Shown here: piece by piece, positions 1 to 62,848 of the stretch
Layout of the letters: the number at the start of each line of letters is the position of its first letter
How positions within the stretch are numbered: the first letter of the stretch is position 1
Source: Candidatus Latescibacterota bacterium
Lineage (GTDB): Bacteria > Latescibacterota > UBA2968
NCBI GenBank assembly: GCA_965222605.1
Contig: OZ244960.1
Location: 3,456,001 to 3,520,000 of the forward strand
DNA length: 64,000 nucleotides
Direction of reading: 5' to 3'
The notes under the pieces: model-generated
The model's database searches: none
The model's input: only the letters and a program-made list of their open reading frames with translations
Told to the model about the DNA's origin: nothing
Translations under genes and position numbers: made by a program

Positions 1-35
1 TTGATGGTTCGACCACGCATCCTGATTGCAGCACC

Positions 36-45800: not shown

Positions 45801-45824
45801 GGCCAGACGTAATTTGTACCTCAT
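42801..45824 (-). CDS. TonB-dependent receptor with N-terminal carboxypeptidase-regulatory-like domain
   Basis: Paralog of 30735..33797. GGMNAEYGNAQGGVI. Terminal RFKF. Confidence 0.92.
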   Translation of the reverse strand: MRYKLRLACVLLALFGFWPSEGMAGTVGKINGTVKDASGEPLPGANVLIKGTQRGATADSEGYFLILSVDPGAYELEASLVGYNAEILQNIAVRADLTTTVEFRLQEAAVELGELVVVAERPPVEVDKTVTRYVVSTEDVENVPLARSTAEVIMLQPGVSLDGNLRIRASRVGGRRGNNEVMVEIDGIRLANNDGLDNVTMSQVNSVSRGAIQEVSVYNGGMNAEYGNAQGGVISLVSRENKDRYSGLGEYRLTLPGRKHWGSSVYDSPLLEGRADYSGIHSGKRTNYDEKLGHLFEANISGPITPNIGFFTGGTTSRRAPVYPNPTDSEPKNFNSSGNITYRPSGNMKFKAGGTWVYRNIFHDGGRDINTGFETTDTPAGGIRGIGQTGNNLFLSSNGAGKNPRTDQVVYGVFTHTLSSKTFYDIRISYQRTAQDTSDVPAATEDVTRDAQGFFVDRNIHAFQYARRNRVLLKADLSSQLHKGHFAKAGFEIIRYDIYQHEEIFETSRNREIRLVGKGDPIIGMEGFNPITYAAYIQDKMEFEGLVVNLGFRADLLDPGDSFGRAMDHPLWFHYNSLTRWRNVPIVDSPTQKAFSPRIGISHPITDRSFIRFFTGQFHQFFDMQNLYTRLFSASGADRDVDGDGVIEQNEIMNALTYPLAADFGNVNVKPEKTTQFEVGFEWNFAGPYVIALTSFYKDQEGRQGDSDNYVHDPFRGKNSAYDHGQWNRRFSTSRGFELSFSKKFKDMIAFNVAYNLNWAKSHSGGRRAQDWTYVATGEFVKSDLYFAGVTFDNTGQEFPRTPDAAERASLAALADDIARGYKKLADNKVPKFSGFWEQPVVIVPGLYAFNVGSYSIPSLDGGLDRRNFASIQLLFSSPPDYHIVPLAGLRATLIWQMQTGSPWNYSPPIGPAQRRNRPVTTVADVSAEKDFNIGETALATAFVEVRNFFGQRDDLSTGFRTIQYGLLLPPPGDGKFDQFGDIAELTRYNDGLGRPRSIVLGARFKF

Positions 45825-45841
45825 ATCTCAATCTCCTTTGC

Positions 45842-46555
45842 TCAATTGGCGAAATAGAACTTGATCCGCGCGCCGCCGTTAAACTTGTGAAAGGGGTATG
45901 CCTTCTCCAGCCCCCAGGCTTCCATGGATCGCGTCTCTCCCCAGATAATATGGTATTGTCCGCGAATATCGATGGCGACGGACTGCGAGGCAAAATACTC
46001 GATACCGAATCCCAAACTCACGCCGGGTTCTGTGCGGACATCTTCTGCGGGTCGCAACAAAACGTTCGGGTCAATGGTCGTGCCACTCTGCCCCGGATAG
46101 ATCAGCCCACTCATCTTGTTTTTAAAGTGGTAGAAGCCCGCGCCAATGAGGAGATACGGCGCTCCTCCACCCGATTCCATCTTTTCACCACCCCTGTTGA
46201 AGTGATAAAGAAAGTTCGCTGATAGGCTTGCCCACACCATCTCTGAGTTGGCATTTGGGCTGTTGTAGCTTTGTCCATCGCCTCCAAAGAGAAAGCTCCT
46301 TTTCTCTAAATCTCCGGAACTATATTTGGTATATTGACCGTCCAGTTCAAACGTCCAGGTGGCGTTCTTGACGTTTACAATGGACGCCCCCACGTTGACC
46401 CCGCCGGAAGGAAACCAGCTATTCAGCGCGAATAGTGGCATTTCGTAATTGGCCACAATGCCCATTCCCCATGTGCCGTCAACTTCCGACTGACCTGTAC
46501 CCGGTATGGAAAACAACAGCGTCAGGCACAAAAAACCAGCTTTTCCATATTTCAT
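45842..46555 (-). CDS. Small outer-membrane beta-barrel protein
   Basis: GGAGGAG RBS before ATG 46555 (MKYGKAG). Paralog of 33813..34511. Confidence 0.8.
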   Translation of the reverse strand: MKYGKAGFLCLTLLFSIPGTGQSEVDGTWGMGIVANYEMPLFALNSWFPSGGVNVGASIVNVKNATWTFELDGQYTKYSSGDLEKRSFLFGGDGQSYNSPNANSEMVWASLSANFLYHFNRGGEKMESGGGAPYLLIGAGFYHFKNKMSGLIYPGQSGTTIDPNVLLRPAEDVRTEPGVSLGFGIEYFASQSVAIDIRGQYHIIWGETRSMEAWGLEKAYPFHKFNGGARIKFYFAN

Positions 46556-46587
46556 ACGCACTCCTCCTTTGCTGTTTACTGCATTTG

Positions 46588-46753
46588 AAAAACACATCTA
46601 TCTTGAAGCCATAGGCATAACCCCTTTCGGACCGCGGATGAAATGTGGTCTTAGTTGGACACCTTTTCAGGCTGATGAGCCATAACGATTATTATGACTC
46701 ATTTCAACTTTGACTCATGTTAATATTCAAATTAAGGCGGGTCAATCAAAAAC
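46588..46753 (-). promoter_or_regulatory. Promoter and conserved leader of operon copy 2
   Basis: Minus-strand TTGACC (46740-46745), 17 bp, TAACAT (46717-46722). Same blocks as 34561-34710. Confidence 0.65.
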
Positions 46754-46970: not shown

Positions 46971-49436
46971 TTATTTGGTCAAGAATGGCTCACTTGTCGC
47001 CACGAGCATGACCAGGTCTTTCAAGCCGTAGCCCTGTGACTTCAAATTGTGTACGATGCGATCTATTTCGGAACGGTCGGTGGCTTCCAGTGTGCGTCCG
47101 GTCGCGTAGGTGAGCATCTTTTCGGTCAGACAGCGGGCAAATTGATCTTTCTTTGCCATGAGGATCTTTTTAAAGCCCACAAGGCCATCGAACTTGTTCC
47201 CGTCTGCCATGACGTCTGACGCATCTATTTTTGGTTTCTTGGGACCGTAACCATATCGCCACGCGCCTATGGGATTGTAATTCTCCAGTGCAAAGCCCAA
47301 TGGATCGATGTGGCGATGACATTCGTTACAGGTGGCGATTTTTCGGTGGTTTGCCAGTTGCTGGCGGATGGTCGTCGATCCCCGAATGTCGGGTTCGATC
47401 GGCTCAATATCGGGCAGTGGGGGCGGGGGTGTTATGCCCAATATGTTTTCCAATACCCATACCCCGCGCACCACGGGCGATGTTTCGATCCCATTGGAGG
47501 TTGCCGTCAATACGCTGGCGTGTCCCAGCAGGCCGCCGCGTTTGGGATCGTTGAGTTTCACTTTGCGAAATTTCCGGCCTTCTACGCCTTCTATGCGGTA
47601 TAACAAGCTCAGGTCGCGGTTGACGAAGGTGAAGTCCGAGTCGATGAAATGTGCGATGCTCATATTTTTGTCGAGGATGTGATTAAAAAAGGCGTGGGTT
47701 TCTTTTTTGATCGCGTCTTCGAGATGCGCCTGATAGTACAATCGGAAATTGCGCGGGTCGGGCGGCATTTCGCCGATTTTGTACAGAGCTAACCATCGCT
47801 CTGTGAAATTCTCCACAAATGCCTGCGCTTTTTCGTCTTTTAACATGCGATCAATTTGCGCGCGCAAATTGTCTGGCTTGTGCAATCGCTTCTTTTTCGC
47901 CAGCTTGAACAATTCTTCATCCGGCATGGATGACCAGAGAAAATACGATAGCTTGGACGCGAGTGCGTAGTCGTCTAATTGGCCTTCGTTTTCGTAGAGA
48001 TAGAGGAAATTGGGCGAGCACAAGATGGCTTTTAAGCCCATTTTGATGGCCTGAATGCGCGAGGCGCCGGCCTTTTCATGTTGATCTACCAGTTGCAGGA
48101 TATGGGCGATTTCACTGTGTTTGACCGGGCGGCGATACGCGCGTGTTGCAAAGCGCGTCAGGACATCGCGCGGTTTGACCTTGTTGGGATCGCGCTTGCC
48201 AAAAGTGCTCGTGTGCGAAGGCGGGGGCCACTGTTCGTAAAGGGGACCTTCGATTTCGACTCTATATATGCGAATGCTCGGTCCCTGATAATTCATTACT
48301 GCGACTTCGGTTTGCCGATGTACGAGTTGTTGACCTTCCTTTTGCGACAGTTTTCGCCGGTCTGTTTTGTCGTAGAGCTGGGGGTGATATCGCCTCAGAA
48401 TACTCCGCCAATAAAGCGTGATCGGTCCGTTAGGATAGGTGACGCGCGGTACATAGGATTCATCCAGCCAGAGTTCGCGCTCATAATCGCGGGGTTGTCC
48501 ATCTGCGATCATTTCAAATTCGGCCATCGGCACATCTGATGTGTTGCTTTGCCTCAAGTCGCCATAATGCCCGGACGCGGCGACAATGCCCATGCGTATG
48601 GGTTCATTTTCATCTGTTCGCAGGGCTTTGTCATAGGGGTGTTGCTGGTTGTGTGCGGATGCGCGAACGCGAACGCGATACATCCCCGAATGCGGCACAC
48701 CTTTTCGGAATCTGTCGATGGACATATATCCCCAGCGGTCATCGGGACGGCGGAATAGCTCATCGTATCCCTGTTTCAAGCGGCGGCTCGCCGGTGCCAA
48801 AAACCCACCGGCCGCGCGCATGATGGGAAACGTAAACTCGTAAGTTTTCACTTCTGGCGGTGGGCCGGGCAATACGGCGTGCTCTACGATTTGATCGGCT
48901 GCGTCGAGATATTTTTCGACCAGAAAATCCGACATGACGAGTGTTTTGCCGATGTTGTCAAATCCGTGTTCTTCATCGTCCTGGGGAAATGCATCTGTGG
49001 GATCGAACATGGTCATGTCCAGATGCAATAGGTCCCGAATTGTGTTGCGGTATTCTTTCCGATTCAAGCGGCGCAATACCGTCTGTCCGCCCGTGCTTTC
49101 TTCTGCTTCGTAATGCGCTTTTAGCGCGGCGGTGATCCAATCGATCACGGGCTTCATTTCAGCCAATTCGGGCTGCGGCTCTTCATAGGGCGGCATTAAG
49201 CCGAGATTTAACATATCCGCGATATTTTGCCACGTTAGCAAAACATCTTCGTCGTGGAAATTTAGTGTGAGGGTATCAAAGCGCTGATCGGCTTTTTGAA
49301 GCTCTGCGCCGTGGCATTTATAACACCGCTGCGCCAAAAATGTCCGCACGGTATTTTTGTATGTCGCATCCCCTTCTGCCCAGGCAGTCGTTGAGAATAA
49401 AATGCCAATCAGGAGGGATAGAACGCTTTTTTTCAT
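46971..49436 (-). CDS. Planctomycete-type cytochrome c protein with DUF1587/DUF1595/DUF1592/DUF1588/DUF1585 domains
   Basis: CYKCH and CNECH haem motifs. LRRLNRKEYRNTIRDLL, LASKLSYFLWSSMPDEEL, RGGLLGHAS, TSPVVRGVWV, IDPLGFALEN. Confidence 0.9.
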   Translation of the reverse strand: MKKSVLSLLIGILFSTTAWAEGDATYKNTVRTFLAQRCYKCHGAELQKADQRFDTLTLNFHDEDVLLTWQNIADMLNLGLMPPYEEPQPELAEMKPVIDWITAALKAHYEAEESTGGQTVLRRLNRKEYRNTIRDLLHLDMTMFDPTDAFPQDDEEHGFDNIGKTLVMSDFLVEKYLDAADQIVEHAVLPGPPPEVKTYEFTFPIMRAAGGFLAPASRRLKQGYDELFRRPDDRWGYMSIDRFRKGVPHSGMYRVRVRASAHNQQHPYDKALRTDENEPIRMGIVAASGHYGDLRQSNTSDVPMAEFEMIADGQPRDYERELWLDESYVPRVTYPNGPITLYWRSILRRYHPQLYDKTDRRKLSQKEGQQLVHRQTEVAVMNYQGPSIRIYRVEIEGPLYEQWPPPSHTSTFGKRDPNKVKPRDVLTRFATRAYRRPVKHSEIAHILQLVDQHEKAGASRIQAIKMGLKAILCSPNFLYLYENEGQLDDYALASKLSYFLWSSMPDEELFKLAKKKRLHKPDNLRAQIDRMLKDEKAQAFVENFTERWLALYKIGEMPPDPRNFRLYYQAHLEDAIKKETHAFFNHILDKNMSIAHFIDSDFTFVNRDLSLLYRIEGVEGRKFRKVKLNDPKRGGLLGHASVLTATSNGIETSPVVRGVWVLENILGITPPPPLPDIEPIEPDIRGSTTIRQQLANHRKIATCNECHRHIDPLGFALENYNPIGAWRYGYGPKKPKIDASDVMADGNKFDGLVGFKKILMAKKDQFARCLTEKMLTYATGRTLEATDRSEIDRIVHNLKSQGYGLKDLVMLVATSEPFLTK

Positions 49437-50728
49437 TTTAATTCAAATCCTTTCAGCGTACCGGTGCTTTGGCCAAAGTGATCGGTTTCCAGTCCAAAAT
49501 TTTGTAACATCGACACGTACAAATTGCTCAACGGAATGCGCTGGGGCTTTGCTTCTGGAAATACCATGTGTTGCCCGTGTTTGAATCCGCCGCCCGCGAG
49601 CAAAATGGGCAAGCTTTTATTGGAATGCGAACTGCCGTTGCCCATGCCGCTGCCCGATAACACCATCGTCTGGTCAAACAGCGTTCCCCCTGCGGGGTCT
49701 TCAATGGCTTTGAGTTTGTCAAAGAACAGGCCGAGGTGTTTCATCTGATATCTTTCAATTATTGTCAAGCCTTCCATGAGTTCGGGCAATTTGCCGTGGT
49801 GCGAGTATTTGTGGTAATTCGTATTCAGGCCCAAATCCGTGGTTTTGATCCCCATGCCCACTTCCAGGGTTGCAACTCGCGTGGAATTGGTTTGCAGGGC
49901 GAGGGCAATCAGGTCGTACATCAAGGGCAGGGTTTCGACAAAAGGGCCATTTTCCGGCATGTCCATATTGACCTGGGGTTTGGGTTTGTCCAGCCACGCT
50001 TTGGACATGCCCAGCTTTTTCTCAACTGTGCGTACAGAGGTCAGATATTCTTCCAGTTTTTCCCGGTCTCTTTGGCCCAGTTTGCGCTCAAAGGATCGCG
50101 CTTCTCCCATTACGGCGTCTAAGATGCTGCCGTGCTGATCGAGTGCGATTGCACGCTGTTCTTTTTCTTTTGCGGTCGTATCTACAAATAGTGCCTGGAA
50201 TACTTTTTGGGGATTGTTAATTGGCGGCACCCGCACGCCCGTGCGCGTCCAGCTCATTTCGCAGTGGCCATTGATGCTTACATTCAACGAGGGGAACCGC
50301 GTGTTGACGCCCACAAATTCCGCGGCTTTTTGATCGATGCTGATGTTGCCTTCGGGCATCATTTTGGCGTCTTTGATTCGGATGCCGCTCAAAAATGTGT
50401 GCGCGGTGCGGTGTCCGCCGGTTACACCGTGGTCCAGATTGGAAAAGATCGTGAAATCTCGCTGATGCGCTGATAGTGGTTGTAGGAGTGTGGGGAGTGT
50501 GTAATTTGCGCCGCCTTCTGTTGGGAAGAATCGCTCGGGGATCATCCCAAAGGGATTGCCAATACATACCAGCCGCTTTGCGGTCTGTGCGCGGGCAAGC
50601 GCAAATGCTTGACTCGCAGCCCGCCCCACGGGAATCATGGCATCTAAAAACGGCAATGCCAGACAAACACCTGCACTCCTGAGAAACGTACGCCGGTTCA
50701 GTGATTTCATAAGTGACTCCTTTTTCAT
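49433..50728 (-). CDS. DUF1552 (HXXSHH) family protein, Tat-type leader
   Basis: LNRRTFLRSAGVCLALPFLDAM, ISIDQ, YHKYSHH, LPILLAGG. Usual partner of DUF1592 genes. Confidence 0.9.
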   Translation of the reverse strand: MKKESLMKSLNRRTFLRSAGVCLALPFLDAMIPVGRAASQAFALARAQTAKRLVCIGNPFGMIPERFFPTEGGANYTLPTLLQPLSAHQRDFTIFSNLDHGVTGGHRTAHTFLSGIRIKDAKMMPEGNISIDQKAAEFVGVNTRFPSLNVSINGHCEMSWTRTGVRVPPINNPQKVFQALFVDTTAKEKEQRAIALDQHGSILDAVMGEARSFERKLGQRDREKLEEYLTSVRTVEKKLGMSKAWLDKPKPQVNMDMPENGPFVETLPLMYDLIALALQTNSTRVATLEVGMGIKTTDLGLNTNYHKYSHHGKLPELMEGLTIIERYQMKHLGLFFDKLKAIEDPAGGTLFDQTMVLSGSGMGNGSSHSNKSLPILLAGGGFKHGQHMVFPEAKPQRIPLSNLYVSMLQNFGLETDHFGQSTGTLKGFELK

Positions 50729-51071: not shown

Positions 51072-54000
51072 ATGCGTATCGCGACGGTATTTTTGAGTTT
51101 GATAGTCGCTGTTTTTGAAATACACGCCAGCGAGACGGACCTCCCGCCGCGCGGAGAAGGATCCATAGCTTTTGAGATCGATGTGTGCAGTTTTCGATAT
51201 CGGGGCCGCGAGGGATTCGAAGAAGTAACCCTGCGCTTTCCCGTCGCGCAGTTTGCATTTTTGAGACAAGATTCGGGGATTTATCTCGCGCGGTACAAGC
51301 CTTCGCTGCGGGTCTTAAACGATGCCGGAGAGATTGTGCAACAGGTGGAGGCGGGAAGCAGGCTGACAGCCGAATCGCTGGAAGCCACCGTCGATACAGA
51401 CCGCATGGTATATGACATGGTGCAGGTGCGCCTGCCCGCAGGTCGCTATCGCGGAGAACTGACCTTGAGTGACTTGCAGGCCGACCGGGCGGGATTGGCG
51501 GTATTTTCTCTCGATGTACCCACTTATGATCCCGGAAAAATAGGCATGAGCGATCTGTATTTGTCCTCTGGATTCAATCCACAGGGGGCAGGAGAGAGCC
51601 TTGAGATGTTTCGAAAAGATGGGCGATTGATACTGCCCAACCCTGCGCGGCAATATCGGCGGGGGAATCCGCTCTACCTGTATTTTGAGGTGTATTATCT
51701 GGGCTATCAGAGTCATCGGGTTGCAATGCAGATAGAAGACCGATACGGACATCGCCTTTGGCGTGACCAGCGGTCATTTCCGGGCTATCGGGGTGAAGTC
51801 AAATTTGCCGAGGGTATTCCCACCCATGAACTGCTGCCGGGGACATACACGTTGCGGGTTCAAGTGGCAGCCGGGCGGGATACACTCGTATCGGCTCGAA
51901 AATTTGAGGTGATGGGTGAGACGCTTGTTCCGGCTTCGGGTTTTGATGATCGGCGAGCAAAAACAGCGCAGCATTTATTAAAATGGTTTGGTGGATCCGA
52001 GGTTGAAGCCACTTATACTGGCTTGGGACGCGCAGACCGTGCGGCATTTCTCTACGGGTTCTGGATGGACCGCAATCCGATTGTGGCGCGGTCGTATTAC
52101 AATCCGCTGCTCGGTTTCGGTGCGCCTCCTGACTTAGATGGGGCGATGATCACAGCCCTGGGCAGGCGCAAAGAAATGGCAAGGCATATCGATCCGCGCT
52201 ATGCGGCCCGACAGGTGTTGCCGGATACAGTACAGGCAAGAGATGCGCTGAAGGTGCTCAACGCGCTTCTCGAGGAAGATGGAAACGATTTGATGGGACG
52301 AGCCGCGCAGGGATATGCCTATTTGTTTGCGAGCAATTTACCCTATGCGGAACAGACGTTTAACTCGGCGTTGAACGCAGGTGGGGTATTGCCCGAAGTG
52401 TACAACGGTGTGGGGATATCCCATATCGGACGCAGGCGGTGGGACGAGGCCGTGGCGGCTTATGATCAGGTTTTGGTTCTTCGCCCCAATTGGAAGACCG
52501 CGCAGGTCAACCGCGCGCTTGCCCGTTTGTTGGGGGGCAAACAGCGGGCAGAAGACGCCTTGAAGGAGGCGATTGAAGCCTATCCGCATCACCCGGAGTT
52601 GCTGTATTTGCTCGGGCGGGTGTTTGAACGCGAGGGCAAGGTCGAATCTGCCGAGAAAGCCTATACCCGACAGACTGTGGTAAATCCGATGCACGCGCGG
52701 GCGCGATTCGATCTGGGGCGGGTATGGTTGAAACGAGGACAACGCGCAAGGGCGACGCGCGTGTGGCGCGAGTTGATGGATACGCGCCCCGAACTGCGTG
52801 CGGAATGTCTTCCCTTGCTCCTAAGTGTGTATCAGCGGATGGGTGAAACAGGAGAGGCGCAAAAGGTAATGGCCGAGTATTTGCGTACGGTAGATGGCGA
52901 TATGCACGGCCTTCTGCAAGATATTCGATTATTGGCGACGGTGAAAGAGGTTGCCGCTTATGAAGCATTGCCGCCCGAGCAGCAGCCGATTTTTGTGCGG
53001 ATGTTCTGGCAGCGCCGCGATCCCACGCCGGCCACGCCGGGCAATGAGCGTCTGGTGGAGCACTATCGGCGAGTATTATATGCAATGCAACATTTTTCCA
53101 CTGGGCAAAAGCCGTGGGACAAACGCGGAGAGATTTATATTCGCTATGGAGAACCGGCACACAAGAGCCGCGCAGGCGATGTGCGCTATGAGATGGATCC
53201 GGATGTGGTGCGGGTTAAGGAGCGATTGTGGATGAGCTTGACTCCCGAGGCGCATAAAGAGATTATTGCGCGGATGGGCAGGCTGCGGACATCGACGCGG
53301 GATGTGCAATATCAAGGCGAAGATGCCGGGGATTTGATTGTTTCAGATTTTGAGTCTATTGATTACGAATTAAATCCCAATCGCACGTTTTTTGGGGGTG
53401 GTGCTGATCGCAATGATGGAAAATATTATGACGATGTTCAGGATTCGCACCGCGATCGCGATGCGGGTATGACGAATATTCGGGGTTTTCCCATCTTTCC
53501 CATTGATGGCGGGACGCGCTGGGAATATTGGATTTATCCCGATGTGGCAGGTGGTATTGAGGTCGTTTTTTCGGCGTTGGATTCTCGCGGTGCATTCGAT
53601 TTCCCCGATATGCCGCAGGGTCGCGTGCTGTCAACTTTTAATCAGAGCCAATGGACAGCAAAAAGACCCGATCGGGTGATGGCGCGGGCGGTGCGGCAAC
53701 AATCTGAAATTTATCGGCCCGTAACAGATGATTTAGCGTTTCACTTCGATGCGATAGATTTTCGCGGGGAGAGTCCGCGCAGCCGGTTAGAGGTCTATTA
53801 CGGTGTGCCTTTAGTTGCTCTGATTGATTCGGAGCGAATAGAAGGTCAAGTTGAACGGGGTATTGCTCTGTTTGACAGTACGTGGACACCGGTTTTTCGG
53901 AAGGTCGCCGGGTTGCCTTTTGCCGTGTCAGATGATACTGAGGTGGGTAGTGGAACACTATTGATTGATGAATTGGCACTTAATGTGCCGCCGGGCAAAT

Positions 54001-54536
54001 ATTATTTGGGCGTGGAAGTGCATGATCGCGCTCGCAATTTGATGGGCGCTTATACGCGCGAGGTGGAGGTGGAGCCATATAAGGGCGGTGAGTTGGGATT
54101 GAGCGATATAGAGATGGCCGGATCGGTAGTGGAGGATGTTGCGGTGAAGGTCAAAGGAGGGCATAAGGTCGTGCCTATGCCATCCAAAACCTATGTGCCG
54201 GGACAACCCGTGACGATTTATTACGAGGTCTATGGGTTGACATTTGACGAATTAGGTCAGACGCGATACCAGATGGATTACAAAATTTCACCTCGAAAAG
54301 GCAAACCTCTGGTCGTGACGATTTTGCGTGCGGTCGGAAAATTGTTGGGCATTGAAGAGAAGAAAGTGGTGACAATTTCTTACGAGCAGGTGGGTACGCG
54401 GGAAACAGAGTACAATTATCTGGAGATTGATGTGAGTGGGTCAGAGGCGGGGCACTATGAGATGGAGGTGACGGTAACGGATTTGAATACGGGTATGAAG
54501 GTAAGCAAAGAGGTGATATTTTTTATTGCTCCTTGA
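51072..54536 (+). CDS. TPR + GWxTD-domain protein
   Basis: Signal peptide, TPRs, FWQRRDPTPATPGNE..VEHYRRV, PWDKRGEIYIRYGEP, WEYWIY. Confidence 0.88.
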   Translation: MRIATVFLSLIVAVFEIHASETDLPPRGEGSIAFEIDVCSFRYRGREGFEEVTLRFPVAQFAFLRQDSGIYLARYKPSLRVLNDAGEIVQQVEAGSRLTAESLEATVDTDRMVYDMVQVRLPAGRYRGELTLSDLQADRAGLAVFSLDVPTYDPGKIGMSDLYLSSGFNPQGAGESLEMFRKDGRLILPNPARQYRRGNPLYLYFEVYYLGYQSHRVAMQIEDRYGHRLWRDQRSFPGYRGEVKFAEGIPTHELLPGTYTLRVQVAAGRDTLVSARKFEVMGETLVPASGFDDRRAKTAQHLLKWFGGSEVEATYTGLGRADRAAFLYGFWMDRNPIVARSYYNPLLGFGAPPDLDGAMITALGRRKEMARHIDPRYAARQVLPDTVQARDALKVLNALLEEDGNDLMGRAAQGYAYLFASNLPYAEQTFNSALNAGGVLPEVYNGVGISHIGRRRWDEAVAAYDQVLVLRPNWKTAQVNRALARLLGGKQRAEDALKEAIEAYPHHPELLYLLGRVFEREGKVESAEKAYTRQTVVNPMHARARFDLGRVWLKRGQRARATRVWRELMDTRPELRAECLPLLLSVYQRMGETGEAQKVMAEYLRTVDGDMHGLLQDIRLLATVKEVAAYEALPPEQQPIFVRMFWQRRDPTPATPGNERLVEHYRRVLYAMQHFSTGQKPWDKRGEIYIRYGEPAHKSRAGDVRYEMDPDVVRVKERLWMSLTPEAHKEIIARMGRLRTSTRDVQYQGEDAGDLIVSDFESIDYELNPNRTFFGGGADRNDGKYYDDVQDSHRDRDAGMTNIRGFPIFPIDGGTRWEYWIYPDVAGGIEVVFSALDSRGAFDFPDMPQGRVLSTFNQSQWTAKRPDRVMARAVRQQSEIYRPVTDDLAFHFDAIDFRGESPRSRLEVYYGVPLVALIDSERIEGQVERGIALFDSTWTPVFRKVAGLPFAVSDDTEVGSGTLLIDELALNVPPGKYYLGVEVHDRARNLMGAYTREVEVEPYKGGELGLSDIEMAGSVVEDVAVKVKGGHKVVPMPSKTYVPGQPVTIYYEVYGLTFDELGQTRYQMDYKISPRKGKPLVVTILRAVGKLLGIEEKKVVTISYEQVGTRETEYNYLEIDVSGSEAGHYEMEVTVTDLNTGMKVSKEVIFFIAP

Positions 54537-54599
54537 CATCTCTTCTGCTCAATGGTGGCATACATAATTGACAAGTAATGTGAAGCGATGGACAAACGC

Positions 54600-54641
54600 A
54601 AAAAAAAAATAAGCCCCGCAATACGGGGCTTATTTTTTTTT
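54600..54641. terminator. Bidirectional intrinsic terminator between convergent genes
   Basis: A10-TAAGCCCCG-CAATA-CGGGGCTTA-T9. The recombinase stop codon lies in one arm. Confidence 0.85.
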
Positions 54642-55619
54642 ACATCCATATCGCAACCGTGCTACAGCACCAGTGCCAGCGAGTTGAGCGCGTGCATAAT
54701 GGGCAGGCATAGATGTGTCGCGCCATCGCCCCGCTATTTGCATCTCGACGATCGATGCACCCGCTGTTGCAAGGGACTGCGCCGATCCAATACGGAGCGA
54801 GTGCCCTGAGAACCGTCCAGAGATTCCTGTAGCGGCGGTACGCTGTTTTACGATGTTCCTGATTGCGCGGGTTGTCAGTCGCCCAGTTCCCAGATGATCG
54901 CCACGGCGCACGCGGCGAAAGAGGGGGCCATCGTCAATTTGGGCGGCGTTCAGCCAAGCCGTCACTGCCGTTGCTGTTGTCGGTCCAATGTACAGGATGC
55001 TGCTGCGCCCTTCCTGGTCGGTTTTAGACCATCGCACGGTAATGCGGGCACTGCCGTCCTTGACGTGTAAAAAATCTTCGACATCGAGGGCAACGCATTC
55101 AGACACGCGCAGGAGTGCGTCAGACATGACGGCGATGATGGCCGCATCCCGAAGGCCAGCGAGGGTGTGATCACTTTGAGCGACGCGTACCACTCTGTCC
55201 GCGTCATGCCAGCGCAGGCCATCCATTTGCCCCCGTCCGCGGTCTCGTCCCTGGCGTCGTATGCCTGCTAATACACGCTGGGTGGCTGGACCAATGGGAT
55301 CAGCATGGCCCTGGTGTTTCACGCGAAACCGGATTGCGCCCACGATTTGTGTACAGGTAGCTGGGCTGGTTCCTACTTCATACCGCACCGTCAGATATTC
55401 GGCGATGAGTGTATCGCTTTCCGCTCGGTCGTTGCGAAATGTATCCCAGGCATAAAGCGCAGACCGATAAGCTCTAATGGTAGCAGGAGCGAGTGATGCA
55501 CGCGCGAGTTCGGCCGCGGGCATTGAGAGTGTCTGAGCGGTGTGACCTGCCTGCATAGAACATCTGCAGGTGGGCAGGTGCATGGACTGGGATGTGGATG
55601 TTTTAATCATTGTGGCCAT
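54630..55619 (-). CDS. Cre-like tyrosine site-specific recombinase
   Basis: Catalytic set R (LLRVSE), K (WSKTDQEG), HxxR (GHSLRIG), W in place of the second His (AGRW) and Y (MPAHYAR), as in Cre. N-terminal APATIRAY core-binding helix. Start uncertain. Confidence 0.9.
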   Translation of the reverse strand: MATMIKTSTSQSMHLPTCRCSMQAGHTAQTLSMPAAELARASLAPATIRAYRSALYAWDTFRNDRAESDTLIAEYLTVRYEVGTSPATCTQIVGAIRFRVKHQGHADPIGPATQRVLAGIRRQGRDRGRGQMDGLRWHDADRVVRVAQSDHTLAGLRDAAIIAVMSDALLRVSECVALDVEDFLHVKDGSARITVRWSKTDQEGRSSILYIGPTTATAVTAWLNAAQIDDGPLFRRVRRGDHLGTGRLTTRAIRNIVKQRTAATGISGRFSGHSLRIGSAQSLATAGASIVEMQIAGRWRDTSMPAHYARAQLAGTGAVARLRYGCKKK

Positions 55620-55734
55620 TTTTTTCGGTATTGTGCAAATCAGTGGAGCAGGTGGTTTTTATTAGACGCTTACGCTATCCGATTTAGATTCATCAATTAG
55701 ACACGCGATAGCCTTTTTTTAGACTTGTGACCTG

Positions 55735-55768
55735 TTTATTTCCGATAATCCAACTTATCGGAAATAAA
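55735..55768. other. 34-bp loxP-shaped recombination site (candidate target of the adjacent recombinase)
   Basis: TTTATTTCCGATAA-TCCAAC-TTATCGGAAATAAA: perfect 14-bp inverted arms around an asymmetric 6-bp core (equivalently 13-8-13). Confidence 0.85.
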
Positions 55769-55976
55769 GGGCAATGAAGTGTTGCGGCTCTATTTGGTAT
55801 TTGACCAGATGAAATAGCCGAAATGCCAAATATCGCAGGATATTGTTGTTTGTACCCTGGCTTCTTTTTTTATCTCGGCAATTTTTTTTAAAATTTTAAT
55901 AGATTAAAATTTAAATTGTTTAAAAATAATATGTTATGAGCGAAATTTACATATCGCATATTTTGGTCTATAACAC

Positions 55977-56005
55977 TTGACAGACTTTGAGGCACATATT
56001 AAATT
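55977..56005 (+). promoter_or_regulatory. Sigma70 promoter inside the putative invertible segment, facing the TBDR operon
   Basis: TTGACA (55977-55982), 17 bp, TAAATT (56000-56005). Confidence 0.75.
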
Positions 56006-56033
56006 GGTCAATCGTTGGATTATCGGAAATTAT
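56000..56033. other. Second, inverted recombination site (intact outer arm + same core, degenerate inner arm overlapping the -10 box)
   Basis: GTTGGATTATCGGAAAT (56014-56030) is the exact reverse complement of 55738-55754. Confidence 0.75.
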
Positions 56034-56267
56034 AGTTAATAATGAAGAAACCGACATCATAGATCGAAAGGAGGTGGCGCATTTAAGCCTGTTTTTGCAA
56101 TCAGAGGGAGGGAATTAAGAAGGAGGTGATGTTTAAGGGCTTATCGATATTGTTTTTTAGTTGGTAGTTTCTCCTTATCAGATGGAGAAATTAGCTTGTG
56201 GGAATGAGCCAGGTGAGCCTTTCCCGTATCTTTCCCAAAGCCGGGGAAGAAACCAAAGGAGGAGTTT

Positions 56268-59200
56268 ATGTACCGTTTGAGAGCTGGGTTTATAGCCTTG
56301 CTTGCCATTGCTCTGGGGTTTGGGCTGGCGTATCAGGCCGATGCACAGACCACCACGGGTAAAATTGCGGGTCGCATCACAGATGCTGGTGGCGACCCTC
56401 TGCCCGGGGCTAACGTAGTTCTTGTAGGCACCAGAATGGGAGCCACAGCAGATGTCAATGGCGATTACTTTATTATTCAGGTTTCGCCAGGCGTGTACGA
56501 AGTTCAGGCATCGCTTGTGGGATATCACACGGTGAGCAAGACGGATGTGGTGGTGAGTATTGACCGCACATCCCCTGTGAATTTTTCCCTGACAGAATCG
56601 ACCGTTGAATTGAGTGAGATCACGGTTGTGGCTGAGCGTCCGCCGGTTGAGTTGGAAGTTTCTTATGCTCAGACGATTATGAAGGCAAGTGAAGTTCGCG
56701 AAGCACCCACAGGTCCCCGCCTGCGCGACGCGTTTGCCACGCAGGTAGGTGTGGATAGCGATGACTGGGGTTTGACCATTCGCGGCGCAAGTGAAGAAGA
56801 GATGTTGTATACAATGGACGGTGTGGGTATGAAAGACAACCGCAATAACCGTCCGTATTCTTCTTTTAGCAAAACAAATCTGGCAGAAGTTCAGATTTTG
56901 ACAGGTGGCTTTAGTGCTGAATATGGCGATGCGCGCAGTGGCGTTGTCAATATTGTGACCCGTGAGCCTCGTCAGTTTACGATCAGTGCAGATGCGCGTT
57001 ATAATCCCGCTGGTCGCAAGCACTTTGGTCCCGACGTATATAGCTCGGACAATTGGTGGGATATTGGTCGTTTTGAGAGCGATGGCGCTACAGCAGATCG
57101 CAATGGCGATGGTGTGCCTGACTTTAAGGGTTGGACGCAGGAGTTCAGTGATCGCGGCGGTCCGGCAGGCGAATGGACTGCGGGTATTTACGATCTCCCG
57201 ATAACGACTGTTGCTCAAGCCAAAGGGATATGGGCATGGCAGCATCGCAACTTTGAATTAGAAGGGAATAATGGCTTTAATGCCAATGCTGCTGATCGCG
57301 AATCCGATTATCACTACGATGTGACGGTTGGCACACCGGTGATCAGCGATAAATTGTCGGTGATGTTGACCAATCAGCGCGAGCGTACGGCTTATACTTA
57401 CGACTTGTCCAAAACGTCGTATCGCGACAACCTGGCGCAGGCCAAACTGACGTTTACACCAACTGCCACAACAAAACTATCGCTGGGTTATTTGCGTGGT
57501 TGGGCAGATGGTACAAAAACAGGCGACTTTACGGGAACCTTTGTCAGATCGCAGGTGGAAGCCTCACGCCGTTTTGATGATGTTCAGATGTTTGCGCCGG
57601 GGTCTCAAGCCAATCAAGAGACCATTGACCGCAATTATTATACTCTGAATTGGTCGCACACATTGTCACCTAAGACATTTTACAATATCACTGCGCGTTA
57701 TGGCAGAACGGATTGGGAAGCCACATGGCAGAAACCTCAAGCCGTGGGTATTCCCGCGGCAGCGGTTTATCCCGATGGTCGGGTTGAAGAGATTACCGAA
57801 TCCGGCGTTGCATCTGCGCAATCAGCAGGTGCTGTGATTCTGGATGAAGCGCCTGTGGGTTGGAACTATGCCAACCGCCGCGTCGATATTCTGGGTATTT
57901 ACCGTTTGCGCGGTGGCGGTGGTGCCAGCCGTTCAGCGGACTGGTCTTATATCAAAGAGACGGATCTGACTTTTGATATTACCAGCCAAATGACACCGCA
58001 TCATCAGGTCAAAGCCGGTATTCAAGCGCATACGTTTTTCCTGCGTGAATATCGCGGTTATACCTCCACACTGCCAGACCGCCCCGAAGGTTGGGAAAAC
58101 GACAATCCGGCAGATATCGTGGCGACGCAAACAGCCAACTTGCACAATTATTGGGTGAAGACGCCGTGGTATGGTGGTTTCTTCGTGCAAGATCGTATGG
58201 AGTATCGCCAGATCGTAGTCAATGCGGGGCTGAGACTGGATTTTCACCGTCCGGACAAGTGGTTTGATCTGGTAGGACAGCCGCATGCAGAATACCTGGG
58301 ATCGAATGCCGAATTGTTATACGAAAATCGACGCTCGGTTCGCGCGCCGACCAAGTGGGCGTGGAGTCCGCGTTTTGGCGTATCTCACCCAACAACGGCG
58401 ACTTCCAAGCTCTTTTTTAACTACGGTCACTTCTATCAGGTGCCGACGACAGTAGAACTCTACCGTGCGCAGTCCGGTGCGGGTGAGCCATTGGAGAACT
58501 TTGGCAACACATGGGTAGAAATGCCTCAGACCATCGCTTATGAGCTTGGTTTTGAGAAGAGTTTTGAAGGCAAGTATCTGGCTTCGGGCACGGTGTATTT
58601 TAAGGACATCGACAAAGAACTCGAACCGAGTACGAGTTATTATCCCGAAAACAGTACTGGCAGGCGCACGCGGTGGACAACCCAGGGACGGATCAAGGAT
58701 GTGCGCGGTTATGAGCTTGCGTTTAAGAAATCGCGCGGTCAGTTCTTGACGGGTTTTATTTCTTATGATTACCGCCAGGAGCGCAGCAAGCGGATTGGGT
58801 GGGACCGCATCTATGACCAGAATACGGTTTCCACGCCTTCCCGCCTGATTATTGAAGGTAGTGCCAATGCCGCTAATCCACAATTTAAGCCGCGTCCAAT
58901 CTGGAAGTTGGGTTTGAACTTCCGAACGCCGCTGGATTACGGCGCCGAACAGCGCATGTTGAAGGGCGGTTGGGAAGCCAATTTGTTCTTCCGCCGAGAA
59001 GGCGGTTGGTGGATGAATCACAATCCGACTAATGATTCTGCGCTGCAGAATGTGTTGAATGTGCAGTGGACAGATAGCAACATGACAGATCTGCGGATTT
59101 CAAAAGCCTTTGATACCAGGGGCGCGCCGCTGTTGTATTTGGAGATTCACAATATTTTCAATTTCAAGAACTTCAACAATCTGCGCGACTACGATGGCGA

Positions 59201-59411
59201 GGTCTGGGACTATCCAGGCACAAATGACGATGCCAAAGCCGACGCGTATATGGAGCGGCTCGGGTGGACTGTTGATGCCAGCGGCAAACTTCAGGAAGGT
59301 AGCCGTCCGGGTTCCGATGTCGATCTGGACAATTTCCCGGAAACGCGCCGTCCTTATATCGTCTATCTGGACCGTCGAGACATCACGTTTGGTTTGCGAT
59401 TCTCGTTCTGA
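56268..59411 (+). CDS. TonB-dependent receptor with N-terminal carboxypeptidase-regulatory-like domain
   Basis: AGGAGG RBS. TTGKIAGRITD...LPGANV, GGFSAEYGDARSGVVNI, QDRMEY, SPRFGVSHP, terminal LRFSF. Confidence 0.92.
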   Translation: MYRLRAGFIALLAIALGFGLAYQADAQTTTGKIAGRITDAGGDPLPGANVVLVGTRMGATADVNGDYFIIQVSPGVYEVQASLVGYHTVSKTDVVVSIDRTSPVNFSLTESTVELSEITVVAERPPVELEVSYAQTIMKASEVREAPTGPRLRDAFATQVGVDSDDWGLTIRGASEEEMLYTMDGVGMKDNRNNRPYSSFSKTNLAEVQILTGGFSAEYGDARSGVVNIVTREPRQFTISADARYNPAGRKHFGPDVYSSDNWWDIGRFESDGATADRNGDGVPDFKGWTQEFSDRGGPAGEWTAGIYDLPITTVAQAKGIWAWQHRNFELEGNNGFNANAADRESDYHYDVTVGTPVISDKLSVMLTNQRERTAYTYDLSKTSYRDNLAQAKLTFTPTATTKLSLGYLRGWADGTKTGDFTGTFVRSQVEASRRFDDVQMFAPGSQANQETIDRNYYTLNWSHTLSPKTFYNITARYGRTDWEATWQKPQAVGIPAAAVYPDGRVEEITESGVASAQSAGAVILDEAPVGWNYANRRVDILGIYRLRGGGGASRSADWSYIKETDLTFDITSQMTPHHQVKAGIQAHTFFLREYRGYTSTLPDRPEGWENDNPADIVATQTANLHNYWVKTPWYGGFFVQDRMEYRQIVVNAGLRLDFHRPDKWFDLVGQPHAEYLGSNAELLYENRRSVRAPTKWAWSPRFGVSHPTTATSKLFFNYGHFYQVPTTVELYRAQSGAGEPLENFGNTWVEMPQTIAYELGFEKSFEGKYLASGTVYFKDIDKELEPSTSYYPENSTGRRTRWTTQGRIKDVRGYELAFKKSRGQFLTGFISYDYRQERSKRIGWDRIYDQNTVSTPSRLIIEGSANAANPQFKPRPIWKLGLNFRTPLDYGAEQRMLKGGWEANLFFRREGGWWMNHNPTNDSALQNVLNVQWTDSNMTDLRISKAFDTRGAPLLYLEIHNIFNFKNFNNLRDYDGEVWDYPGTNDDAKADAYMERLGWTVDASGKLQEGSRPGSDVDLDNFPETRRPYIVYLDRRDITFGLRFSF

Positions 59412-59424
59412 CCTTTTCATCCCT

Positions 59425-59450
59425 GCCCTCTCCTGTGAGTGGGAGAGGGC
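59425..59450. other. Intercistronic hairpin (GCCCTCTCC...GGAGAGGGC), REP-like or mRNA stabiliser
   Basis: 9-bp GC-rich stem just after the TBDR stop. Confidence 0.5.
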
Positions 59451-59501
59451 TAAAGGGGATCGCTGTTTGAATTGTAGATATTTCTCAAGGAGTATAAACT
59501 T

Positions 59502-61619
59502 ATGAAACGTTTTGTATTTGTGCTGATGGCTATGCTGATGGCTGGCAGTGCTTATGCACAGGGTCACGAGATCGGCACCCTGTGGAGCTCGGGTCGTCTG
59601 ATTTGGCCCGGCGGTCTCGAAACAGGTCTTACCGATCCGGATATCGGTTATCGCGTTGGAAATTCGGGTTTTGCCGTGGTAGGGCTATATTCGAAGTTTA
59701 ATGTGCCCGGTTATTACGAAGGCGGCCAACATCTGGTAAATACCACGCAAAGCCCCTGGTGCAATGACCTGCTGGACGACCTCGCTGATTTTTCGTCTTC
59801 GAAGTTGGGGGGCACAGAGACGCGATTGAACAAGCCCAATCCGAAGTTTTTTCGCATCAATCCACCAACGTTGATTCAGGATGGCAAAGAGATATTGAAT
59901 CCCAATTGGCGTTTGTTCCCCGAAGACGACGATGCCGTGCGGTCGGACCTGGGGGCTGATCTTATGATCAGCAGCACGCTTGTAAACTCCGAAGGCTTGC
60001 GCATTGTGCGCGAGACGTATTCGTGGGCAAACCAGGACGCCGACGATATGATCTTTGAAGTTACGACGATTACGTATCCGGAAAATCCGCATGTGGTTGA
60101 TCTCAGAGCAGGCGAGCGCGGCATTGCTGCAAGCCCGGAAACGGCGCAGAAAAACCCGTCTTATGACAATTTCCACGTTGGGTTGAACTACTATTTGCAG
60201 CGCGGTGGTTCAGGTCCTGCTGGTGGCGCGCATATCACTATTAATCCCGAAGATGGAGGTCGCGCTTACGATGCTGGCTTGCTCGCTGGCGGTATATGGG
60301 ATGAGGTGAATTACTGGGATGATGATGAAAAGCTGCTCTATATCCACGATGGCGACGACAGCGATAAGTTGGGGTATCGCCCCGATGGCGATGACCGCGG
60401 CGAACCTGCGCCCGCTACTGGCGATTTGCTCGATGGGGTGCGCGCTGCCAATATCAGTTCGGGTGAGTTTATGGAATCGCACTACAAAGGGCGCGTGTTT
60501 TTGCACGTGGATAAGACGCCGACAAACGATCCCAATGTGTTGAGTGAGAACTGGCTGGAAGACATGTCTGATCCCGAAAATGCACAGCCGCGTCAGGTGC
60601 GCTGGGTGCCGGGTGAAGTGTGGACGAGCACGCGCACAGCTAATCGCAAGACCGTGCATGATTTTTATGTGCAGCCGGGTACAACACGCGATGAACGGAT
60701 TTCAGATTCCGATCCCGACCAGCCAGGGTATGTGACGACAGAGCAGATCTATCAGTGGCTGACGACATTTGGCCCCTGGGACTTGAAGCTCGGTCAAAGC
60801 ATTCACATTGTATCGGCAGTGATTGTCGCTGGTCCGTCTGAAGCAGAGAACAAGCGCGTGGGTAAGGCATGGGCAGATGGCACAATTGGTTTTGTTCAAA
60901 AAGAAGCTTTCCTCGACAGTGGGTTAGATTCGTTGAAGGCGACTGTGGCAGTTGCGCGTCAAGCCTGGGCAAATCGCACGGGCACGATGCCCCGATTGCC
61001 CGCTGCGCCCAATTGGCCTGCTTCGGTCACGCTGACCTCTGGTCCCGATCGCAACGAGTTGAGTTGGGATGCTGTTTCTGGTGCGGTCAAGTATAATGTG
61101 TATCGCTACGCGGGTCGTCATACAGAAGTGCCCGAACTGATTGGATCACCAACGGGCACCACCTTTAACGATGAGACTTCGATTCGCGGTACGAGATATT
61201 ATTATTCCGTGACAGCCGTTGATGCCAATGGCCTGGAGAGCAGTCGGTTTGCCTCGCGCACCGAAGCAGAGGGTGTGAGTCCCTTCCGCGGTCCTGCCAA
61301 TGACATTACGCAGGTTCGCATTGTGCCCAATCCATATCAGGTGCAGGGCGGGCAACTCGACGATGGGGGTTATAACTATCAGGGTCAGCCCCACAAGCTC
61401 CAGTTTGTGAATCTGCCGGGACAGGCTGTTATCCACATTTTCACCATTACCGGTGATCTCGTGACGCGCCTTGACCACACTTCTGGCTCTGGCGATGAGT
61501 CATGGGATTTGATGACTTCGGATAACAACCAGTTTCTGGTCAGTGGGATCTACTTTGCTCATATTGAAGATACGGCAACTGGTGCCAAGCACATCGAACG
61601 CTTTGTCGTGGTCAGGTAA
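59502..61619 (+). CDS. Secreted protein with FN3 and T9SS-CTD/FlgD-like C-terminal domain
   Basis: Signal peptide. LSWDAVSGAVKYNVYR...YYYSVTAVD. VRIVPNPY...FVNLPG.AVIHIFTITGDLV...SGIYFAHI..FVVVR. Confidence 0.78.
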   Translation: MKRFVFVLMAMLMAGSAYAQGHEIGTLWSSGRLIWPGGLETGLTDPDIGYRVGNSGFAVVGLYSKFNVPGYYEGGQHLVNTTQSPWCNDLLDDLADFSSSKLGGTETRLNKPNPKFFRINPPTLIQDGKEILNPNWRLFPEDDDAVRSDLGADLMISSTLVNSEGLRIVRETYSWANQDADDMIFEVTTITYPENPHVVDLRAGERGIAASPETAQKNPSYDNFHVGLNYYLQRGGSGPAGGAHITINPEDGGRAYDAGLLAGGIWDEVNYWDDDEKLLYIHDGDDSDKLGYRPDGDDRGEPAPATGDLLDGVRAANISSGEFMESHYKGRVFLHVDKTPTNDPNVLSENWLEDMSDPENAQPRQVRWVPGEVWTSTRTANRKTVHDFYVQPGTTRDERISDSDPDQPGYVTTEQIYQWLTTFGPWDLKLGQSIHIVSAVIVAGPSEAENKRVGKAWADGTIGFVQKEAFLDSGLDSLKATVAVARQAWANRTGTMPRLPAAPNWPASVTLTSGPDRNELSWDAVSGAVKYNVYRYAGRHTEVPELIGSPTGTTFNDETSIRGTRYYYSVTAVDANGLESSRFASRTEAEGVSPFRGPANDITQVRIVPNPYQVQGGQLDDGGYNYQGQPHKLQFVNLPGQAVIHIFTITGDLVTRLDHTSGSGDESWDLMTSDNNQFLVSGIYFAHIEDTATGAKHIERFVVVR

Positions 61620-61677
61620 GAGAGCTTCCAGCAGTCAGCAGTTAGAGTTGACTTGCTTTTGATCAAGGAGATAAGTT

Positions 61678-62760
61678 GTGAAATACACAAAACTGGCCCT
61701 CATGATGCTCGCGCTGTCTTTGGGGCTTCTGGCCACAACAGCACAAGCGCAGCTGCGTGTACCAGATAAAATTTTGCCAGAGAATCACGAAGAGAATAAT
61801 CCCGTATTTATCAAAGTTGCTCAGGCTGGCTTTACATTTTTGAAGCTGCCGACCAATGCGCGTTCAGCAGCCCTTGCAGGTTCGGGTACAGGTATAATCG
61901 GTTCTGCGTCTGGCGTGTTTACCAATCCTGCAACGCTGGCGTTTTTCGATGGTCGTGAGGCATTTTTTACTTATGTTTCATGGATTGCCGATACCAAAAG
62001 CCAGGTCGCTGGTGCTGCTTTCAATATTCCAGGCCGCGGTACCTTTGGTGTGGGATTTGTGACTTATGATGCCGGTACGTTCAATGGCACAGCCATTGAT
62101 CCAAACCCCGCAGGTGCGGGGTTTACAGAGACGGGGACGTTCACAACGTCTAACTACGCGCTCTCTGCGGCTTATGGCATGAAGATTACCGATCGTTTTT
62201 CGGTGGGTGCCAATGTGAAGATTGCCAGTCAAAATTTGGGCACTGGCAGTGTGTTGATCGGTGGTAATCGCACAACTGTCGATAATTCCAAGACAGCATT
62301 TGCTGTGGATCTGGGTACGTATTTCAATACGGGCTTCCGCAATACGATTCTGGCGATGACGGTGCAAAACTACAGCTTTGAACAAACCTATCAGCGCGAG
62401 GCATTTGAGTTGCCGCGCAATATTCGTTTGGGGCTGCTGGTGGATGTGTTGTCCCTGTCGGGCAGTATCCCGGTTCCCCATCACCTGGATCTGGCATTGG
62501 ATGTGACGAATCCCGTGGATTTTGACGAGCAGGTCCTGGTTGGTCTGGAATACACATTTCAAGCCGCCGGTAGTCCGATTGGCTTTTCTGGTCGTGCGGG
62601 TTATAAGACCAATCACGATACAGAGAGCTATGCCTTTGGCGGTGGTCTGAAGTATTTGACGGAAACCGGCAGGGGTGTTAAGCTCGATTATGCCTTTAAG
62701 GCATTTGACAGCAATTTCTTCTCTTCTGTACATGTGATTTCAGGGGCTATTGATTTTTAG
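61678..62760 (+). CDS. PorV/PorQ-family outer-membrane beta-barrel
   Basis: AQAGFTFLKLPTNARSAALA...FTNPATLA, GRAGY, LDYAF, terminal F. Confidence 0.85.
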   Translation: MKYTKLALMMLALSLGLLATTAQAQLRVPDKILPENHEENNPVFIKVAQAGFTFLKLPTNARSAALAGSGTGIIGSASGVFTNPATLAFFDGREAFFTYVSWIADTKSQVAGAAFNIPGRGTFGVGFVTYDAGTFNGTAIDPNPAGAGFTETGTFTTSNYALSAAYGMKITDRFSVGANVKIASQNLGTGSVLIGGNRTTVDNSKTAFAVDLGTYFNTGFRNTILAMTVQNYSFEQTYQREAFELPRNIRLGLLVDVLSLSGSIPVPHHLDLALDVTNPVDFDEQVLVGLEYTFQAAGSPIGFSGRAGYKTNHDTESYAFGGGLKYLTETGRGVKLDYAFKAFDSNFFSSVHVISGAIDF

Positions 62761-62805
62761 TCGCTGAAATACAGGTTTGAAGATTAGAACCCCGATGCTA
62801 AAATA

Positions 62806-62842
62806 AACGGCGGAGAGACGCAATGTCCTTCCGCCGTTTTTT
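62806..62842 (+). terminator. Intrinsic terminator of the TBDR-PorV operon
   Basis: AAACGGCGGA...TCCGCCGTTTTTT. Confidence 0.75.
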
Positions 62843-62848
62843 CATGGC

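Follow-up and report, generated by a model that had tools for sequence, protein, structure and literature searches.

In this study, we analysed a window of 64,000 nucleotides from the genome of a sponge-associated Candidatus Latescibacterota bacterium (contig OZ244960.1, positions 3,456,001 to 3,520,000), a genome of one contig and 6.34 Mb. The window holds a gene for a Cre-like tyrosine recombinase and two inverted sites, which stand before an operon for a TonB-dependent receptor (TBDR), a probably secreted protein and a PorV/PorQ family protein. The best explanation is that they form a slow, ON-biased phase switch of Cre/lox type for the TBDR operon, locked ON in relatives by loss of the recombinase, and we consider this probable. 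Judged by its sequence, the locus is a genuine substrate for inversion of Cre/lox type and preserves good evidence that flipping took place in the past. Four observations carry this reading: the anatomy of the locus, the type of its enzyme, the covariation of the site cores, and the occurrence of homologous cassettes in both orientations.

55735–55768 (+): site A, a lox-like 13-8-13 site, TTTATTTCCGATA-ATCCAACT-TATCGGAAATAAA, a perfect palindrome
56000–56033 (−): site B, an inverted half-site plus core (outer arm 56021–56033, core 56014–56019, degenerate inner arm 56000–56012)
55749–56019: 271-bp segment from core to core, predicted to be invertible by the geometry of the sites
55977–56005 (+): predicted promoter of sigma-70 type, TTGACA-17-TAAATT, directed outward through site B
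54630–55619 (−): Cre-like tyrosine recombinase, 329 aa (PF00589, PDB sequence matches, Foldseek)
56268–59411 (+): TBDR, 1047 aa, with CarboxypepD_reg, plug, and barrel domains above the Pfam cut-offs
59502–61619 (+): probably secreted 705-aa protein of no known family, signal peptide judged by eye
61678–62760 (+): PorV/PorQ family protein, 360 aa (NF033709, 147.6 bits, cut-off 90)
54601–54641: hairpin resembling a bidirectional terminator, between the GWxTD and recombinase genes, 18-nt perfect arms ending in A/T runs
62805–62843 (+): terminator-like hairpin with a T run, read from the sequence, which closes the operon

Sites, promoter and recombinase

The preliminary description of this DNA had reported a perfect palindrome at 55735–55768, an inverted 17-bp copy of part of it about 260 bp away, the promoter between them firing through the second site, and a recombinase gene pointing away from the TBDR operon (56268–62760). 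Each of these was confirmed. Site A consists of 14-nt arms with 6 nt between them (equivalent to 13-8-13), has the 6-bp core TCCAAC at 55749–55754 in an asymmetric spacer, and lies 115 bp from the recombinase start codon. The exact 17-nt inverted pair, composed of outer arm and core, is located at 55738–55754 and 56014–56030, 259 nt apart. Exact inverted pairs of at least 16 nt at 100–500 bp spacing occur six times in the genome, and only the A/B pair overlaps a 13-8-13 palindrome. A search of the window genome for a second copy of site A gave neither a paired copy nor a direct-repeat partner. The promoter is the best of four promoter-like matches (10/12); shuffled sequences give 2.1 such matches, so this one is weak alone.

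The recombinase has the complete catalytic set R-K-H-R-W-Y (R171, K199, H273, R276, W299, and Y308; Cre residues numbered as in the available part of PMC10250229). Among 35 homologs, five of these residues are invariant and K199 is nearly so. All 17 sequence matches in the PDB are Cre or its derivative Tre. Foldseek places Cre in the top ranks (E 3e-13 vs 5e-8 for XerA) with a structural-alignment identity of about 22–25%, using a model with a pLDDT of 70.6 in which residues 278–323 fall below 50. The protein scores under every Xer cut-off. Enzymes of the Fim family are short and consist of the catalytic domain only. The 329-aa window enzyme has an N-terminal helical domain in addition. Sequence matches and the modelled fold thus support a Cre-type enzyme over one of the Xer, integron or transposon integrase kind, and the earlier call of a Cre-type rather than Fim-type recombinase holds. 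Pairwise dN/dS values of 0.12–0.28 (five full orthologs, 10 pairs) indicate that the gene is under purifying selection.

Matched cores in the genus and flipped cassettes in homologs

The genus set comprised 21 genomes, and the upstream region could be aligned in 20 of them (G008 gave no match); the closest orthologous loci are L083–L086. A full recombinase with 86–100% identity is encoded in 5/21 genomes (G000, G004, G006, G014, and G015), G001 has a version with 70% identity, and G020 retains a fragment. The promoter is exact in 17 of the 20 aligned genomes and absent from G010, G016, and G018, which form one clade in a midpoint-rooted rpoB tree. Six genomes keep the site A core, and in each of them site B has the same central 6 bp as site A: TCCAAC in G000, ATCAAC in G004, and ATCCAC in G014, G006, G015, and G020. 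Spacer position 8 differs between A and B in 6/6, and the identity ends there. The six genomes are kin and were counted as three alleles, not as six independent tests. The cores of G000, G004, and G014, close relatives within one rpoB clade, all differ from one another, and A and B agree within each genome.

In this type of recombination, strands are exchanged over the central 6 bp. Cre strand exchange requires matching spacers (available text of PMC11260471). Because inversion across a mismatched core makes both daughter sites alike, matched cores that differ between close relatives would record real inversions. The match favours recombination, since a plain repressor site needs no matching spacers. 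An A/B identity that ends at the core boundary is what real inversions of Cre type should leave behind, and this covariation, together with the flipped homologous cassettes described below, bears out the earlier proposal of an inversion substrate. In the genomes without site A, the core of site B drifts (identity 0.51 vs 0.80). Core covariation offers a means of detecting past inversion without reads.

Several genomes record individual events at the locus. In G015 (L066:7852-8985), a DDE transposase gene lies in the outer arm of site A, where a 9-bp duplication restores the site and the insertion separates the switch from its enzyme. A deletion in G020, counted as one event, runs from within the recombinase gene to the first base of the core. 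G017 retains the segment and the terminator. In G001 (L077), the outer arms of both sites have changed together and the cores differ; its enzyme, of 357 aa, has an insertion and carries arginine at the position of the catalytic lysine. If the switch reading is correct, successive stages can be read across the genus: the ancestral promoter, gain of the cassette, the switch, an insertion sequence, a deletion, and the locked ON state.

Homologous cassettes were sought in other genomes (the best 80 of 557 relatives). Inverted site pairs within 700 bp upstream were present at 20/86 homolog loci vs 6/290 control windows, a difference that counts for less in favour of a switch because the criteria were set after the sites had been seen and the loci include paralogs. 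A strict search for a palindrome plus partner over the homolog loci returned partners for the orthologs L083 and L084 only, and the other cassettes were found by looser searches. The upstream regions of the remaining homologs, compared all against all, gave no further reversed segment.

From G041–G044, 40 loci were fetched and 37 scored (contig ends truncated two of the others, and the third was without the segment). They have a promoter segment of 130–150 bp between inverted sites whose inner arms resemble those of the window. On one side lies a gene for a surface or secreted protein and on the other, in 17/37, a full-length recombinase of 48–54% identity. The spacers match within the locus in 36/37 cassettes and include 18 different sequences; shuffles give a mean of 2.6 matches and a maximum of 12 in 100,000. 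Five of the 37 are reversed, with the promoter facing the surface gene (3/16 in G041, 2/16 in G042, 0/4 in G044, and 0/1 in G043). The L119 segment aligns in reverse, at 84–95%, to eight others between collinear flanks. L195 (ON) and L223 (OFF) have 960 bp of far flank in common at 97% and are perhaps one locus in two states. The flipped homologous cassettes support the mechanism by analogy, not orthology.

In Poribacteria, L097, L110, L129, and L139 have the same pairing with different cores and a promoter toward the enzyme, and in L093 the promoter points away. The target genes encode Calx-beta, cadherin-like, and fn3 domains (L119), cadherin (L129), or a di-haem oxidoreductase (L110); among four neighbouring target genes scanned, that of L118 gave no domain match. 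In the single-site homologs L087, L090, and L126, a promoter-like sequence directed at the recombinase overlaps the lox-like site, which suggests autorepression.

G041 and G042 (L193-L208 and L213-L229) each have about 16 cassettes before two paralogous surface-gene families. Two to three are ON per assembly, and under half have an adjacent full-length recombinase. The contig G042:C1 begins and ends inside the spacer of one site (L214 and L230); a mixture of orientations or a rearrangement at the switch may be the cause. A 47%-identical paralog in G000 (G000:C1:2737406-2738627; L026 and L250) and in G009 (L007) has its own inverted pair with the promoter facing the enzyme, and adjoins a secreted gene with dockerin, cadherin, and fn3 domains. 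Of this promoter, the −35 box lies within the segment and the −10 box within the outer arm. The spacers of the pair are almost the same in G009; in G000 they do not match, and this switch may be locked there. A 43%-identical homolog (L125) lies on a 123-kb contig titled Nitrosopumilus.

Proposed switch and alternative readings

We propose the following mechanism. The Cre-like enzyme would bind both arms of site A, and at site B the outer arm and, weakly, the inner side. Strand exchange across the identical 6-bp cores would invert the 271-bp segment. In the ON state, in which the locus is assembled as described earlier, the promoter would drive the TBDR operon. In the flipped state it would point at the recombinase start, with the −10 box 144 nt away and no terminator between. 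Terminator-like sites number zero within 55300–56500, and the recombinase leader has no run of four or more T in 4/4 genomes. OFF cells would then make more enzyme and flip back, and ON cells would have given the promoter away. The switch is therefore probably biased to ON, and the poor site B would make it slow as well. The recombinase's own promoter may have been captured for the TBDR operon, an added, inverted second site making it invertible, and a receptor used by phage or seen by a host could supply the selective reason. In G041–G044, a terminator-like hairpin stands on the enzyme side in 22/37 cassettes, and a stable OFF state there, as opposed to a self-cancelling one in the window, fits this arrangement, with the caveat that the terminator-less Poribacteria loci are mostly OFF. 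We infer that the window locus still inverts and that its promoter is active; present-day switching, strongly ON-biased, is likely. A broader claim appears to us somewhat better than even. It holds that the window carries an active, self-resetting Cre/lox-type switch, which is one of several independent recruitments of the autoregulated promoter of a Cre-like family for phase-variable surface genes of sponge symbionts, and that this family spans single ON-biased switches to genomes with about 16 switches and different spacers.

A number of observations weigh against a switch that operates at this locus today. Of the ON/OFF switch proposed in the preliminary description, the two orientations are found in homologous cassettes, and the window locus itself was never seen flipped. 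The comparison of related genomes suggested there gave a flipped copy in 0/6 of those that keep the site A core, all being ON, and no flipped allele in the 21 genus genomes searched. For the suggested mapping across 55749–56019, a strand-changing joint was found in 0/4 contig sets among the matches listed. Both comparisons used contigs, which drop rare variants and so do not establish absence. The four runs represent at most three samples, X1 and X2 possibly being the source sample. Perfect-match contigs run unbroken across site B at depths of 80 and 35, and strains skipping the cassette are present in 3/4 runs. In the window genome, the −10 box lies where the inner arm of site B would be, as had been noted; its gap to the spacer varies from 5 to 8 nt across orthologs (shifts of up to 3 nt), and the inner arm matches at 5–8/13 positions without fixed register, so it is not a conserved arm. 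The promoter occurs without a full or partial recombinase ortholog in 10 genomes, several of them fragmented (G002, G003, G005, G007, G009, G011, G012, G013, G017, and G019). In the nine genomes without site A, the outer arm of site B is kept at 86% identity, compared with 72% for the promoter spacer and 51% for the core, and may have a second role. The cassettes of G041–G044 have TA flanking both spacers on both sides in 37/37 (a scoring condition), unlike site B, and the flipped ones come from a different recombinase clade. In a tree of 83 proteins, from which loci without an open frame over 230 aa were left out, the window clade sits on a long branch of its own and is separate from three other clades that have pairs.

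One alternative is a relic switch or promoter capture, in which a past inversion equalised the cores and gave the operon its promoter, site B has since decayed too far to recombine, and the enzyme persists either by repressing at the B half-site or by doing something else at site A. The uniform ON state of the six genomes without any flipped contig, the degenerate inner arm, a recombinase missing or broken in 10/17 promoter-carrying genomes (G020 not counted), and the partial retention of the B outer arm without the enzyme all agree with it. A relic does not readily account for three close relatives that each have a different, matched core, as this needs repeated recent exchange with the inner arms already degenerate, nor for the drift of the B core once site A is gone. 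We regard it as rather unlikely. Site A could also serve a domesticated mobile cassette in its resolution, integration or autoregulation, with the A/B identity kept by replication template switching or gene conversion between inverted repeats that lie close together, and no programmed inversion. The patchy distribution is compatible with this, as is the single lox-like site just upstream in many homologs, which is typical of Cre-type genes (available text of PMC10250229), and strand exchange does not explain the joint change of the outer arms in G001 with differing cores. Template switching, however, gives no cause for an identity that ends at the core boundary in 6/6 genomes; the locus has no cargo, no direct-repeat partner, and no second site copy in the genome, and the same design is found flipped in homologs. 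This explanation is very improbable. The slow, ON-biased phase switch remains the reading that we prefer.

Surroundings of the locus and comparison with known systems

The operon occurs as two allele types across the genus, with TBDRs either 85–99% or about 60% identical to that of the window, and the cassette precedes both types at the same locus. The type in G000 differs from that of its closest relatives G004 and G014, and the allele pattern suggests replacement. The 705-aa protein has no Pfam or NCBIfam match, and its look-alikes in the Atlas are hypothetical proteins (one cluster with 17% Por_Secre_tail and one with 51% fn3). The window genome has 29 TBDR, 20 secreted-protein, and 29 PorV-like gene loci. 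Rfam gave nothing at gathering score within 54400–56400, only weak matches on the terminator. Folding of the 259-nt leader is no better than that of shuffled sequences (z −0.69). In the 5' leader, a conserved ribosome-binding-like motif, a start codon, and a short open reading frame (56118–56170 in the window) are present in 19 of the examined sequences; a leader peptide call was dropped, as the frame varies in length and sequence. A conserved 12-bp inverted repeat inside the segment (55791–55832) is single-copy in the genome, and stretches resembling it occur near other loci in G006, G020, L011, and L012.

Near the cassette are a second TBDR-type gene with a small neighbour (42801–46597, −), a DUF1552/DUF1592 pair (46971–50728), and the GWxTD/TPR gene (51072–54536, +), which is not beside the cassette in G001, G006, G014, and G020. 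Positions 1–3000 show strong AT skew (0.22–0.49) and raised GC, possibly from a repeat-protein gene. A metagenome scan returned five loci, none of them an ortholog, and a sponge metagenome label is attached to 4/24 listed runs that contain the genome, with small shares.

Promoter inversion is already known, and its Cre/lox-type version appears to be what is new here. At the level of abstracts, a literature search returned no natural Cre-type invertible promoter and no inverton or surface phase-variation paper on sponge symbionts; the supplements of PMC10250229 and of inverton surveys (PMC11602134) could list such loci. The whole word 'Cre' is absent from the available main text of the 2025 phase-variation review PMC11868660, and the word 'phase' from that of the Cre-type survey PMC10250229. 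If our reading is true, phase variation is a natural role of Cre-type recombinases, which are otherwise familiar from dimer resolution and from engineering, and uncultured sponge symbionts vary their surface structures by phase. The natural enzyme and site pairs, one of them asymmetric and with 18 spacer variants among them, would suit standard E. coli assays.

Among known recombinases of invertible promoters, MrpI is a Fim-type enzyme and divergently placed. The mrp system of Proteus mirabilis resembles the window locus in that an adjacent, separately transcribed recombinase flips the sigma-70 promoter of a surface operon, and its recombinase mutants are locked ON or OFF (PMC7444556, available text). 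The window locus differs from mrp in its Cre-like enzyme, 34-bp lox-like sites, and uptake-type operon, and its switching is predicted. The fimS element of E. coli uses two short enzymes, 9-bp repeats, and host factors. It too is a promoter inverted by tyrosine recombinases, FimB and FimE (PMC11868660 and PMC8138268, in part), and IHF is named as a host factor in the first of these. The window has instead one two-domain enzyme of 329 aa whose best structural matches are Cre. With Cre/loxP of phage P1 and other Cre-type systems, it has in common the fold, the catalytic residues, a 13-8-13 site beside the gene, and the need for matching spacers (PMC10250229 and PMC11260471, accessible portions); Cre itself resolves phage genome dimers (PMC8138268, in part). 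Unlike Cre/loxP, the window locus has a second, inverted, asymmetric site, and the two sites bracket a promoter. In the mpl genes of Mycoplasma penetrans and the Mpi promoters of Bacteroides fragilis, many surface genes each have an invertible promoter (PMC2268961 and PMC10403206, as far as their available text goes), and the homologs in G041 and G042 are similar. Mpi is a global serine recombinase, whereas the window genome has one such switch among its 29 TBDR loci, with a dedicated local enzyme.

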